Assembly: GCA_964012805.1 (NCBI GenBank)
Contig: CAXGUD010000002.1
Span: 160,001 to 224,000, forward strand
Source of the DNA: an uncultured Bacteriovoracaceae bacterium
GTDB taxonomy: Bacteria; Bdellovibrionota; Bacteriovoracia; Bacteriovoracales; Bacteriovoracaceae
DNA: 64,000 nt
Direction: 5' to 3'
The notes below the pieces were generated by a model. It did not search any database. It was given only the letters and a program-made list of their open reading frames with translations, and was not told the origin of the DNA. The position numbers and the translations under genes are program-made. This document shows positions 28,843 through 33,708 of the stretch, piece after piece (positions within the stretch are counted from its first letter, which is position 1; each line of letters starts with the position of its first letter).

Positions 28843-29415
28843 CTAGATTGATTTTATGTAATGACAGATCTTTTGAACATTCTGAGCAATCCTCTTCACA
28901 AAATCCTGATACTTTAGTTGGTTCTCAAAGCCGAAAATTAAATCAGCACTTCTGGTAGTGTCGATGATTTCAGTGAAGGGGTTTTTTACTTTATTTGAAA
29001 TTTGCCGGTGAACACTCTCTTTTTCGAAATTCCTTATTTGGCGCTCAGATGCAGGAACTTCCATTTGAATCCCAACATAGTAGGTGCAAGATTCAGGAGT
29101 TGGACCAACTGGAAAAAGTGCTAGCCTATTCCAAAAGACCTCGCCTTCCCTTTTATGATTCAGAAGATCAAAATAGCAGCACTCCCTTTTTTTTAAAGAG
29201 GACCTAATATTTAAAACGGTTTTAGGATCAGTCTTTGGTCCTTGAAGAAACCTGCAGTTTTTCCCAAGGACATCTTCCTTGTTATAACCAGTTAGATTTA
29301 GGAAGGGGTCGTTAACAAAAATTAGCGGTTGCTCTTTAATTGAGAAATCCGTTACTGCAAAAGGAATGGGAAAAAACTCTCCACATGAAGCCAAAATATC
29401 TTTTAAAATAATCAC
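28843..29415 (-). CDS. short LOV (blue-light, flavin) photoreceptor
   Basis: Canonical GKNCRFLQG with the photoactive Cys; PLIFVNDPF, FWNRL, YYVGIQ with the signalling Gln; GTG start with GGAG RBS. Confidence 0.92.
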   Translation of the reverse strand: MIILKDILASCGEFFPIPFAVTDFSIKEQPLIFVNDPFLNLTGYNKEDVLGKNCRFLQGPKTDPKTVLNIRSSLKKRECCYFDLLNHKREGEVFWNRLALFPVGPTPESCTYYVGIQMEVPASERQIRNFEKESVHRQISNKVKNPFTEIIDTTRSADLIFGFENQLKYQDFVKRIAQNVQKICHYIKSI

Positions 29416-29609
29416 CTTAATGGACTCCTACTTTGAAACTTTGTTTAGCTTAAATGGGAAAGCTTTTCAAAAATTCAAAATATTTATGCCCACTAAAATA
29501 AGATTAGAAAAGATTTATTTCATTAATTATGCACAATAAAACGCTATTTGAATTTTCAAATCAGAAAAATAACACTCAACCGTTTATTTGTGCGATGCCT
29601 ATCTAAAAA

Positions 29610-31109
29610 TTACAAACGCTGACCCGCCTCTTGAATAAGCTGGCCTGTTATTCGGCCTGACTCAAATATAGTTGGGAGACCACTTCCGGGGTGAGTTCCG
29701 CCTCCCACTAGATAGCAGTTTTCATATTCTTCAAACTTGTTACGAGGTCTAAAATAAAGCATCTGACCTAAGTTATGCTTTAGGTTAAAGACCGCTCCTT
29801 TATTAATGCTATAATCTTTCTCCCACTCGATAGGAGAAATGATTTTTTCCGCTTTAATATTCTCCCTCAAATCATGGAAGCCAGTCCTCTCAATAATGAG
29901 GTCAAGGATTTCATTTCTAAATTTTTCTTGATCATTTTTCCAATCAAAAGCAAGGTCATTATTTGGGAGAGGGACAAGAACATAGAGGCAAGAATGACCT
30001 TCAGGGGCGAGAGTCGGGTCCGTGACAGATGGGTTATGCAGGTAAAAACTCGGGTCGTCTGAAATCTTAGTGTTTTCCGTAATTTCTTTAACATTGGACT
30101 TATAGTCTCTAGAAATATAAATCGTGTGGTGAGAAAGGTCATACTTCTTAGATAAACCTAAATACATAATGAGGGTCGAACAACTATACCCCATCTTATC
30201 GAGTTTTTTATCTGTATACTTTTTTCTATCGGCTTCAGGAATAAGGTTTTTCATGGCGTGAGCAAAGTCAGCATTAATGATGTAGTAATCTGCGGTAGTC
30301 GTCGTTCCATTTTCAAGTTCTAGACCTTTAATTTTTTTGTTATCAATAATGACTTTTTTAACGGGAGTTTCGAGGTGGATTTGCCCTCCGTCCTCTTCGA
30401 TTGCTTTTCCCATGGCCTTTGTTATTTGGTTAAGTCCACCCTCAACGTGATAGATTCCACCGTCGTGCTCTAAAAAGGAGAGGATTGAAAAGAGCGCTGG
30501 GGCTTCCCATGGGGACATACCTAAATATTTTGTTTGAAAAGTAAAAGCTATTTTTAAAAGGTCACTGCTAAAGTATTTTCCCATTTGCTCATGAACACTT
30601 TTAGGAAAATCTAAATATGGTAAGGCCTTAATAAGCTCTGGCTTAAAAAAGTCGCTAAGCTTTGTGAAGGAAGACTGAAGGGCCGGTTTGACTTTAGAAA
30701 ACTTTTTTTCTTCCTCTTCTAAAAATCGAGCATAGCCCTCACCATCACCCGGAAATATGGCCTCAATATTTCTTTTCATTTGCTCCCTATCCATTGTCAC
30801 AGGGAGGACCTTATCTTTTTCAAAGACGAGGTCGTAAAGAGGGTCCAATTTCATGAGTTTGATATAATCGTTTAAGTTTCTTCCCGTACTTTCAAAAATC
30901 TCTTCTAAAACATCGATCATATGAAAGAAAGTTGGACCTAAATCAAACGTATAGGGCCCCATTTTGACAGCAGACGTCCTCCCACCAACAAAAGGAGCTT
31001 TTTCATAAATAGAGACATCATACCCTTTATTGGTCAAAATCATCCCAGCACTTAAGCCTCCTGGGCCAGCACCAATTATAGCAACACTTTCTTTTTCTTT
31101 CTTTTTCAT
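29610..31109 (-). CDS. phytoene/diapophytoene desaturase family (CrtI/CrtN-like)
   Basis: IIGAGPGGL FAD motif, FDLGPT, KYLGMSP, YLVGGGTHPGSGLPTIFESG. Confidence 0.9.
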   Translation of the reverse strand: MKKKEKESVAIIGAGPGGLSAGMILTNKGYDVSIYEKAPFVGGRTSAVKMGPYTFDLGPTFFHMIDVLEEIFESTGRNLNDYIKLMKLDPLYDLVFEKDKVLPVTMDREQMKRNIEAIFPGDGEGYARFLEEEEKKFSKVKPALQSSFTKLSDFFKPELIKALPYLDFPKSVHEQMGKYFSSDLLKIAFTFQTKYLGMSPWEAPALFSILSFLEHDGGIYHVEGGLNQITKAMGKAIEEDGGQIHLETPVKKVIIDNKKIKGLELENGTTTTADYYIINADFAHAMKNLIPEADRKKYTDKKLDKMGYSCSTLIMYLGLSKKYDLSHHTIYISRDYKSNVKEITENTKISDDPSFYLHNPSVTDPTLAPEGHSCLYVLVPLPNNDLAFDWKNDQEKFRNEILDLIIERTGFHDLRENIKAEKIISPIEWEKDYSINKGAVFNLKHNLGQMLYFRPRNKFEEYENCYLVGGGTHPGSGLPTIFESGRITGQLIQEAGQRL

Positions 31110-31204
31110 ATGATCAATTCCTCTATAATGACTTACACGCCATTTTAAGGCCGTTTTATAGTCATTTTATGGTTATATTAAAGTCATTTGTTCTTTTACT
31201 ATTC

Positions 31205-32227
31205 TTAAAAGGACCTGCCTTCAAAGAATAGATCGTTGTGTAAATTATCTAGGGAGTCCTGTCCTTGATATACCTTATTAGCAAAAAGCAAACACTCACC
31301 CATCTCTGCCCTAGAAATCTTAAAAGGCTTTAGTCCCCTTTCGATATCTTCCCAATGTTTTGCCCCAAACTTAATGGTTTTATAAGCGGGAATAATGGCC
31401 AAAAGACAAAACTTTCTAAGACCCTTGAAAGACTCAGGCAGAAGACCCAGGTAACTCCTAGCGAGTTCAAATTCTTTTCGGATATCATTCAAAGCCATAT
31501 CCCAATCCAATTTAAGAGGACTGGAAAACCTCAATTTAGATTGAAAAAAATCTATTGGCAAAAAGCAATGTCCCTTTTTCAGGTCATCTAAATGGTCTTT
31601 TATGATATTAGTTTTTTGAAGACAGCGGCCAAACCCTAAAGAAAAATCACTCCAGCCTTTCTCAAGGTCCTCTTGGTAAAAAATCTCCGCTAACTCGGTC
31701 ACAAGAAGTCCCACTGTACCAGCAACATAATAACAATACTCATTATATAAGCTCATGGACTTAATAAAATTTTCACCGTTAATACCAGAAATAAAAGGAT
31801 CATCACCGCCAAACTTAATCATCCCTTTTCTCATTTCAAGACAATACTTTTTTATGATTTCCCTTTCCCTTAGACCTAAACTCCAAAAGCTAGAAAAGAC
31901 ATGGCCAAAGGAAGGGCTTTTAAAAAAAGTCACTTCTTCTACTTTGATTCCTTGCATAGGTACTGAGGTCAAACGGTCAATATTAAGCTCTAAGTCTTCA
32001 GGCACTTCTAAAGCATCGGAAAAGGCCTTAAAAAGAAAGTCCTTTTTATCTAAAGGAAGAGTCGAGTCTTCAATGGAATCAAGGGCCCTCATAAGCAGAT
32101 AGCTAAGCCCTATTTGATCTCTCAAACCTGCTTCTAGCGTCGGGATACAAAGCGCAAAGCTTCTTGAAACCAGATTAAGGTTTTGAAGAATTTCTTCCCA
32201 CCCCATCATTTTTTTTTCCATATCCAC
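31205..32227 (-). CDS. squalene/phytoene synthase family, squalene synthase (Sqs)-like
   Basis: VSRSFALCI, RALDSIED, YCYYVAGTVG, LQKTNIIKD. Confidence 0.85.
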   Translation of the reverse strand: MDMEKKMMGWEEILQNLNLVSRSFALCIPTLEAGLRDQIGLSYLLMRALDSIEDSTLPLDKKDFLFKAFSDALEVPEDLELNIDRLTSVPMQGIKVEEVTFFKSPSFGHVFSSFWSLGLREREIIKKYCLEMRKGMIKFGGDDPFISGINGENFIKSMSLYNEYCYYVAGTVGLLVTELAEIFYQEDLEKGWSDFSLGFGRCLQKTNIIKDHLDDLKKGHCFLPIDFFQSKLRFSSPLKLDWDMALNDIRKEFELARSYLGLLPESFKGLRKFCLLAIIPAYKTIKFGAKHWEDIERGLKPFKISRAEMGECLLFANKVYQGQDSLDNLHNDLFFEGRSF

Positions 32228-32727: not shown

Positions 32728-32800
32728 AGTAAAATGGTTGAACCATTTCTACTCCATGATGGGCGAAATCGTCTACTTTTAAAAAATTGAAGGGGAGATT

Positions 32801-32817
32801 TGTATAAAGATTGTCTA
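32801..32817 (-). promoter_or_regulatory. CarH/LitR-like operator candidate
   Basis: TAGACA and TATACA at 11-bp period upstream of the DUF2269-synthase-desaturase genes. Confidence 0.4.
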
Positions 32818-32874
32818 GTGCTTAGGCCAAGCCCCCTGGCCAAAAATAAAATTAAAGACTTTGGAGCACCTTTT

Positions 32875-33708
32875 CTAAAAGCCCTCCCCTCTTAAAAATG
32901 GTACGACATAGTTTTTAGAGGCGTCGCATGATTCCTTGCTTCCAGCTTCGCAGTGCTGTTTAAAAATTCCTCTCATCTCAGCTTGAATAGATAAGGCCTC
33001 TTCCTTAGTGCGCTTGGATGCGGGGTGATTCTTGCCTAGATAAGGCTCCCAATCAATGAAATATTTTAAAAAGGTACTCGTCCGCCTTAAGGCCTCTTTT
33101 TTTTCAGAAAGCTTCCGGAGCTTTTGCAGTGTTCCAAAAGGCAACCTCTTGCTCGCTAAGTTTACAAGCCACTTAGGTATGAAGCCACCTGGGTCAACTT
33201 CATTTTGGTAGGTAACCCTTGTTTTTGTTTGACTAAGAGCTTCAAATAACCAACTACTCCTAAGCTTGGGTATCCTTACAGTTCCCTTTTTTTTGGGCAC
33301 AAGCTTTAGGTCTGAATTTTTCGTAGGAACGTAAATTTGTTTGAGATTTGGCTTCAGGGTTATTTTGCTATGAAGTATAACATCGCGGTCATCAATAAAT
33401 GGTAAGTTGTTTGCAACTTTAACGTAACTTATGCCCTCATAGTCATTCAAAACTTTTAGGGTGCGAAACTCGATGACATTTTCAAGAAAATCTTCTTTAT
33501 GGTCAGGATCATATAGGACAGTAAAAAGCTCATGGATATTTTTTTCTGCAACCATCTCTGCTTTAAAGGAAATAATAGATGACCCCTCAATGCTTTTTTG
33601 TGACACCTTAATACCATCTTCGTTAAATATATCTTCCCATTCCCCTGCTTGAAGCTCAAAGGGACCTAGAAAAGCAAGAACTACAAAGAAAAAAAACGTT
33701 GTCTTCAT
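32875..33708 (-). CDS. START/SRPBCC lipid-binding protein, exported
   Basis: Signal peptide, WE..DGIKV, PFIDDRD, DPGGFIPKWLVN. Confidence 0.85.
   Translation of the reverse strand: MKTTFFFFVVLAFLGPFELQAGEWEDIFNEDGIKVSQKSIEGSSIISFKAEMVAEKNIHELFTVLYDPDHKEDFLENVIEFRTLKVLNDYEGISYVKVANNLPFIDDRDVILHSKITLKPNLKQIYVPTKNSDLKLVPKKKGTVRIPKLRSSWLFEALSQTKTRVTYQNEVDPGGFIPKWLVNLASKRLPFGTLQKLRKLSEKKEALRRTSTFLKYFIDWEPYLGKNHPASKRTKEEALSIQAEMRGIFKQHCEAGSKESCDASKNYVVPFLRGEGF

Follow-up and report, generated by a model that had tools for sequence, protein, structure and literature searches.

Which pathway is encoded by five co-oriented genes at positions 28843-33708 of the stretch analysed here, and what switches it on? 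The stretch (hereafter the window) comprises 64,000 nucleotides of contig CAXGUD010000002.1, positions 160,001 to 224,000, and belongs to a 100%-complete genome of 4.47 Mb. The original prediction for this locus put forward a light-linked, squalene-route system for C30 carotenoids. Our analysis leads to a reading that we hold to be probable, though well short of assured: the genes for a DUF2269 membrane protein, a squalene synthase (sqs) and a CrtN-type desaturase (crtN) form a minimal C30-carotenoid operon, subject to an unlinked LitR/CarH-type repressor that acts at 11-bp repeats and is released by a blue-light LOV sensor.

As predicted, the five open reading frames (ORFs) are intact and lie on the minus strand. 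They encode a START-domain protein (32875-33708; PF01852), the DUF2269 protein (32230-32727; PF10027, 93.9 bits), the synthase (31205-32227; PF00494), a flavin adenine dinucleotide (FAD) desaturase (29610-31109) and a short LOV protein (28843-29415). The DUF2269 ORF has its likely start at 32697, the position at which its congeners start, and is separated from the synthase by 2 bp. Its product contains three hydrophobic segments; an Atlas search returned its own family only, and the literature passage mentioning the domain gives it no function. A scan for sigma-70 promoters and terminators was uninformative, with 12 sites against 15.5 expected and no terminator between the genes.

The synthase carries the signatures that had been attributed to it, squalene-synthase (SQS) motifs rather than those of CrtB or CrtM: VSRSF at residue 20, DSIED at 50, YCYYVAGTVG at 164 and LQKTNIIKD at 203, with further motif positions at 211 and 303. 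The sequence aligns to human SQS and has two DxxxD motifs, the SRSF flap, YCxYVAG, LQKTNI and K-I-x-R. Among NCBIfam models, the squalene synthase TIGR01559 ranks first (105.6 bits), ahead of HpnD (37.2) and CrtB (32.7), and all ten PDB sequence matches are squalene synthases. An AlphaFold model (pLDDT 89.9) superimposes on SQS structures with Z of 28.5-31.7 and a root-mean-square deviation of 2.5-3.0 over about 300 residues, against Z of 22-23 for CrtM and 19.7 for HpnC. In a tree of 43 rows, which drew 22 rows from 120 listed homologues and 12 from 29 phylum loci and had none for HpnC or HpnD, CrtM and CrtB fall on a separate branch with support of 100. Profile ranking, tree and fold hence support an Sqs-type squalene synthase, with a predicted NADPH-dependent conversion of farnesyl diphosphate (FPP) to squalene. 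It is the sole match to the SQS_PSY family in the genome.

The desaturase scores 470 bits against TIGR02734, well over the cut-off of 238, which places it in the CrtI family, and has the FAD motif GAGPGG at residue 13. Its best named relatives, at 53-57% identity, are from Kapabacteria/Ignavibacteria, Clostridia, Delongbacteria, Planococcus and Halobacillus. In all four loci examined that are labelled Kapabacteria, Ignavibacteria or Bacteroidetes, the relative occupies the first desaturase position in a crtN-aldH-crtP(-crtQ-crtO) operon. A quick tree of 44 rows without bootstrap, with 18 of 120 listed homologues and reference labels taken from operon order, groups the window enzyme with those operon-leading genes and with the CrtN of Azospirillum Sp7 and Phycisphaera (SH-aLRT 96), apart from CrtP, CrtI, CrtD and CrtM-linked CrtN. 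Deletion of the Azospirillum Sp7 crtNPOQ locus abolishes pigmentation and leads to squalene accumulation (PMC13274349). The CrtN-type assignment of the original prediction is thus borne out, and the comparison supports a desaturase of the squalene route, with squalene as its predicted substrate.

The genomic setting is consistent with a short pathway. In line with the original prediction for the window, neither a cyclase nor a second CrtI-family desaturase was found there or in the genome: no hopene cyclase, squalene epoxidase or CrtB was found in it, and searches with three CrtP and three CrtO queries returned no orthologue among its 6,158 ORFs. The full crtN-crtP-aldH-crtQ-crtO pathway is consequently incomplete here, with CrtP and CrtO missing, and squalene has no other evident use. 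AldH-like and CrtQ/CruG-like genes are present, unlinked to the cluster and devoid of the operator described below; one is a CrtQ/CruG/HpnB-like glycosyltransferase (G000:C21:71642-72796, in this genome) that also lacks carotenoid neighbours. Since CrtP and CrtO orthologues were not found and the tailoring genes are unlinked and without operator, the product is likely an unmodified, simple C30 polyene, that is, diaponeurosporene- or diapolycopene-like hydrocarbons. Upstream of this step, a mevalonate operon (G000:C5:78551-84139, locus L277) encodes a type 2 IDI, HMG-CoA reductase, decarboxylase and kinases, and the short-chain prenyltransferase in the genome scores best as FPP synthase.

Evidence for the regulation of this pathway comes from a predicted operator of the LitR/CarH type at 32800-32818 (minus strand), which consists of two 11-bp direct repeats between the START and DUF2269 genes (TAGACA at 32817-32812 and TATACA at 32806-32801). 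Each repeat matches the published CarH repeat, nnnnTnnACAn (PMC9304148). A T-x-x-ACA pair with 11-bp periodicity lies upstream of a MerR gene in nine of nine regions from other genera, and a matrix trained on those nine loci was used to scan the 3,686 genes of the genome. The window site scores 23.0 bits and ranks first. Both hexamers are invariant in two congener sequences, a metagenome contig (L042) and a genome (G001); conservation begins at the first repeat, and the DNA just upstream diverges in both. The ranks of the individual genes are 1595 for START, 1420 for sqs, 801 for crtN and 1741 for LOV, so that none has a site of its own; the regulated unit therefore most likely starts at DUF2269, probably the first gene behind the operator, and leaves START outside.

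The same repeat pair recurs before photolyase, lipocalin and SOUL genes. We assembled nine light-stress genes, namely all three lipocalins, all three SOUL genes, DUF2256 and two of the three photolyase-family genes, the third being downstream in an operon and excluded. At the 11-bp spacing, eight of the nine fall in the top 5% of the genome; six other spacings recover between zero and two. The 18-bp spacing of the T(G/A)TACA-N12-TGTACA pattern recovers two and places the cluster at rank 288, as opposed to rank 1. The photolyase site falls within the end of the preceding ORF, and repeat sites before lipocalin genes are also found in G019 and G151. Two of these genes lie in the window and may belong to the regulon: a lipocalin (48330-48947, plus strand; PF08212), with a weak repeat pair at 48331-48347 (8.2 bits, rank 127 of 3,686), and a SOUL haem-binding protein (24530-25096, minus strand; PF04832), with a weak site at 25167 (10.0 bits, rank 69 of 3,686). 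Carotenoid genes as such are not general targets, since operators are scarce where the class carries C40 crtI clusters: G007 and G024 have no site above 13 bits there, and two of 19 further short loci have one above 12 bits. The C40 cluster of the family member G007 (L190:7737-13367), with the order crtE-crtI-crtB-lycopene cyclase-hydroxylase-rhodopsin, has no such operator.

Further repeat pairs were recorded elsewhere in the genome. Locus G000:C23:40273-50021 (L278), with DUF2256, DUF2071 and two photolyase-family genes, has three nearby, at 11.5-17.7 bits. Candidate regulon members include a 155-aa gene of unknown function (G000:C13:52737-53204; pair conserved in G001 and in the second congener genome, G002), a divergent TetR-like pair (C33:15264-16726; conserved in G002) and a desaturase-like membrane gene (C66:11186-12190; conserved in G002). 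A weaker pair (14.1 bits, rank 14 of 3,686) precedes the mevalonate operon, and precursor supply may share the regulon with the cluster.

The original prediction had allowed for CarH control. The predicted operator agrees with that part of the claim, and the corresponding regulator gene lies outside the cluster, on contig C26 (G000:C26:15021-17787, locus L181). There, a MerR repressor is divergent from a TIGR01777 oxidoreductase gene, beyond which, two genes from the repressor, lies a second short LOV; the divergent genes are separated by a repeat pair that is conserved in G001 and G002. The best PDB matches of the repressor are CarH proteins; its recognition helix, RAWEKRY, is of the RxWERRY type, and a MerR helix-turn-helix (HTH) domain together with 11-bp TnnACA repeats at its own promoter places it in the CarH/LitR family. 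Both cobalamin-ligand histidines are replaced, by Q172 and S210. The class I (B12) motifs Wx9EH and D/ExHxxG, as defined in PMC9304148, are accordingly broken (V161..Q171-Q172 and D208-Y-S210). Proximity to a short LOV and absence of the B12 motifs agree with class II LitR; the class II operator, T(G/A)TACA-N12-TGTACA, is not the one present here. Five B12-binding-domain matches occur in the genome.

The window LOV protein is a candidate partner for this repressor. It consists of 190 aa, yields only PAS matches, has no effector domain and bears the GxNCRFLQG cysteine (GKNCRFLQG at residues 51-59). Residues C54, N86, N96 and Q117 are invariant in 23 members of the LOV family, and the window copy retains all flavin-adduct residues. 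Its helical tail aligns (4r3a) to a kinase dimerisation helix in which the histidine is replaced by Asn141, and no ATPase domain follows. These features are those of a short LOV photoreceptor with a predicted photocycle. Family members span 190-200 aa and occur in 46 of 238 class genomes; the paralogue near the C26 repressor is 62-63% identical to the window copy. Control of the cluster by LOV is likely, though it would be indirect. Complex prediction pairing the window LOV with the C26 repressor, from alignments of 12 and 23 rows, reached scores of 0.03 and 0.14, where the mark is 0.32; neither is used as evidence.

The resulting mechanism can be stated as follows. In the dark, the C26 repressor would occupy the 11-bp repeats and keep the presumably co-transcribed operon off. 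Under blue light, the cysteine-flavin adduct would form in LOV, which would then bind the repressor and free the promoter. Sqs would join two farnesyl diphosphates into squalene, and CrtN would desaturate squalene to a simple C30 carotenoid acting as a membrane antioxidant, with a presumed photoprotective role.

Comparison across genomes outlines the distribution of these elements. Of 238 class genomes, two have the synthase, and both belong to this genus. The desaturase has a match at 1e-40 in 22 of the 238, the other 21 being only 30-36% identical; two of those 21 were included in the tree and are CrtI with crtB as a neighbour. The synteny proposed for the cluster is observed in L042, which retains DUF2269-sqs-crtN-LOV and the ORF convergent with LOV, at 87, 85, 95, 88 and 70% identity, and was not found beyond the genus among the metagenome and phylum loci compared. 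G001 retains START-DUF2269-sqs, its contig ending 30 bp past the stop. On this distribution, the operon is a genus-level acquisition. The repressor is far more widespread (191 of 238 class genomes). In a sample of 50 repressors (30 top matches and 20 chosen), the cobalt-ligand histidine is lost in 17, of which 16 are in LOV-bearing genomes, and 22 of 23 LOV-negative genomes retain it; its state changes at least five times on the tree. Across several genera, histidine loss tracks the short LOV, which suggests repeated sensor swaps, as a lead rather than a result.

A number of observations weigh against the proposed reading. The synthase, at 105.6 bits, falls far short of the TIGR01559 cut-off of 286.75. 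A doubt about the desaturase concerns CrtNc, an enzyme that derives from the CrtI family. Aldehyde-oxidising CrtNc is found in Bacilli (PMC8933910), and the Planococcus and Halobacillus rows of the clade could be either desaturase or CrtNc; the separate aldH encoded by the Kapabacteria neighbours favours the desaturase role. The closest relatives also include clostridial CrtN, for which an unclear function is given (PMC9907078). Gaps of 95 bp before crtN and 194 bp, AT-rich, before LOV interrupt the unit. Synteny is shallow, extending to two congeners, and neither a CrtN-level nor a LOV neighbour appears at any of 78 other metagenome Sqs loci (from the best 80 of 135, all confirmed, with L041 equal to the window) or 29 phylum loci, although just 27 of the 78 reach 5 kb and the phylum loci span 1.5 kb on each side. 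The window operator has two repeats, and characterised CarH proteins use three or four (PMC9304148). The seed pattern was picked after the window site was known, and of the nine test genes, four had already come up in a top list when the set was settled. The loose repeat pattern is not enriched genome-wide, with 24 matches at 11 bp against 10-36 at other spacings; in G001 and G002 it yields 9 and 12 matches, against 9 and 12 in the control. Finally, the link between histidine loss and LOV reduces to three independent pairs and is not significant (p 0.5).

Several of these points bear on the strongest alternative, that the chemistry and the LitR-type repression are correctly assigned and the signal is not light perceived by the window LOV, which would then be a duplicated neighbour; the cue might instead be singlet oxygen, redox state or another stimulus, or light sensed by the C26 LOV only. 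The window LOV gene lacks its own operator and follows the AT-rich gap, none of 29 other LOV loci has carotenoid neighbours, no LOV match was obtained in G070, whose repressor is His-less, and 11 of 27 LOV-bearing genomes, those with weaker LOV matches, keep the B12 histidine. Against this stand the complete set of flavin-adduct residues in the window copy and its retention at the same position in L042 at 88% identity, as well as the occurrence of LOV within 1.5 kb of a MerR gene at 11 of 29 other LOV loci and the precedent of PmlR2/PmSB-LOV (PMC9758184). We regard this alternative as unlikely, yet worth keeping in view.

It is less plausible still, and in our estimate improbable, that the useful membrane lipid is either squalene or a product that is colourless and partly desaturated, the CrtN-like enzyme being weak or having a different substrate, which may also be the case for clostridial CrtN. 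CrtP and CrtO were not found, alternative functions have been proposed for CrtN-only lineages (PMC9907078), and the window desaturase has a long stem (0.62) in the quick tree, close to clostridial sequences. The desaturase gene is nonetheless directly adjacent to the sole synthase and 95% conserved in L042, and its nearest named relatives head complete C30 operons. Synthesis of dehydrosqualene, as by CrtM, or of a C35/C40 backbone, by a route not via squalene, is highly improbable: the synthase does not reach the TIGR01559 cut-off of 286.75 and is about 25% identical to solved SQS, and Sqs promiscuity has been speculated for Methylomonas (PMC10745290), but CrtM and CrtB are on their own fully supported branch, Z to CrtM is 6-9 units lower, the SRSF flap and K-I-x-R are of SQS type, and the short-chain prenyltransferase best fits an FPP synthase.

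The components of the favoured reading, a light-controlled Sqs-CrtN operon, have precedents, and the description of the cluster as an undescribed system is not supported. The route that leads to C30 carotenoids by way of squalene is established: Sqs and CrtN occur in Methylococcales and some Firmicutes, CrtN-only genomes are described in Poseidoniia, and cyanobacterial Sqs with planctomycete CrtN yields C30 carotenoids in Escherichia coli (PMC9907078). In some genomes, Fig. S7 of that work marks sqs as close to crtN, and their adjacency may therefore not be new; its Dataset S1 lists CrtN in none of 16 Bdellovibrionota rows. Relative to the route in Planctopirus limnophila, Azospirillum brasilense Sp7 and Methylomonas, which uses Sqs or HpnCDE with CrtN (PMC9907078, PMC13274349, PMC10745290), the window likewise combines an Sqs-family synthase with a squalene-route CrtN and no CrtM. 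It differs in that synthase and desaturase are adjacent, whereas Methylomonas sqs sits with a cyclase, apart from crtN (PMC10745290); in that CrtP, CrtO and a cyclase were not found; and in that relatives in the class carry CrtI-like genes instead. The CrtN-only pathway of Ca. Poseidoniia (PMC9907078) shares a squalene source and CrtN without CrtP/CrtQ/AldH tailoring; here the host is bacterial, a DUF2269 gene leads, a LitR-type operator is predicted, and the AldH-like and CrtQ/CruG-like genes are unlinked and without site.

On the regulatory side, LOV anti-repression of LitR has been shown for Pseudomonas PmlR2/PmSB-LOV (PMC9758184). The class II systems described there (PmlR2/PmSB-LOV, PplR/PpSB-LOV) resemble the present one in having a MerR-type repressor near a short LOV, no B12 motifs, and a photolyase among the predicted targets. 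In contrast to the Pseudomonas operator, T(G/A)TACA-N12-TGTACA, that proposed here consists of 11-bp direct repeats; the LOV has a 60-residue kinase-derived tail, the carotenoid operon is the top predicted target, and the repressor would derive from B12-type relatives of the same family. Class I CarH/LitR of Thermus, Myxococcus and Bacillus megaterium (PMC9304148) shares the recognition helix, the TnnACA repeats and carotenoid targets; here the B12 motifs are broken, two repeats replace three or four, and the targets would make C30 carotenoids from squalene. Literature listings and abstracts contained no report of Sqs-CrtN combined with LOV/LitR, or in this class. Chemistry and light switch are each known in other bacteria; their pairing appears new.

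START and lipocalin had been proposed as carriers for the pathway. START adjoins DUF2269 in G001 as well, but it lies upstream of the operator, has no site of its own and has eight paralogues in the genome, and its assignment as a carrier was rejected as unsupported; the lipocalin gene is 15 kb from the cluster. On the other side of the cluster, the stop of a convergent ORF similar to HTH/DUF4423 (TIGR02147) proteins (28204-28842, plus strand; Atlas leads 0.91-0.93, no Pfam match) abuts the LOV stop exactly. It is retained in L042 (69.5% identity over 131 aa) and is a bystander. Elsewhere in the window, the gene of a PEP-utilising enzyme (25190-27906) overlaps a PNPOx-like gene; the enzyme contains the PPDK N-terminal and mobile domains and scores under every NCBIfam cut-off. 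On inspection, a 2,567-aa ORF (4367-12070) resembles an FG-GAP/RHS-repeat protein, three large membrane sensor proteins (13802-23634) seem to end in CheA-like kinase domains, and 52534-54804 is presumably the B12-independent methionine synthase MetE.

The homologues of one window regulator are named from Halobacteriovorax, Bdellovibrionales and Bacteriovoracia, which supports a Bacteriovoracia-like host; the predatory habit put forward in the original prediction would follow from this placement. In a wider reading, which we offer tentatively and as rather less than an even prospect, the B12-based photoreception of CarH was replaced repeatedly in Bacteriovoracia by a kinase-derived short LOV acting as anti-repressor on a His-less CarH. 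In this genus, the LOV regulon would have captured an Sqs-CrtN operon together with a LOV copy of its own, and perhaps also the mevalonate operon, yielding an on-demand, cyclase-free and light-inducible C30 photoprotectant and an independent origin of LOV-LitR coupling.

No new chemistry is revealed by the cluster. If our reading is correct, it would provide a natural, co-evolved Sqs-CrtN pair in which no cyclase competes for squalene and which would lend itself to tests of the single-enzyme squalene route. The cluster would also extend C30 carotenoids to Bacteriovoracia and add a second, apparently independent light switch of the LOV-LitR type, with operator, repressor and sensor all defined, in a family where the coexistence of B12-type and His-less repressors would make the transition from B12 photoreceptor to LOV directly testable.

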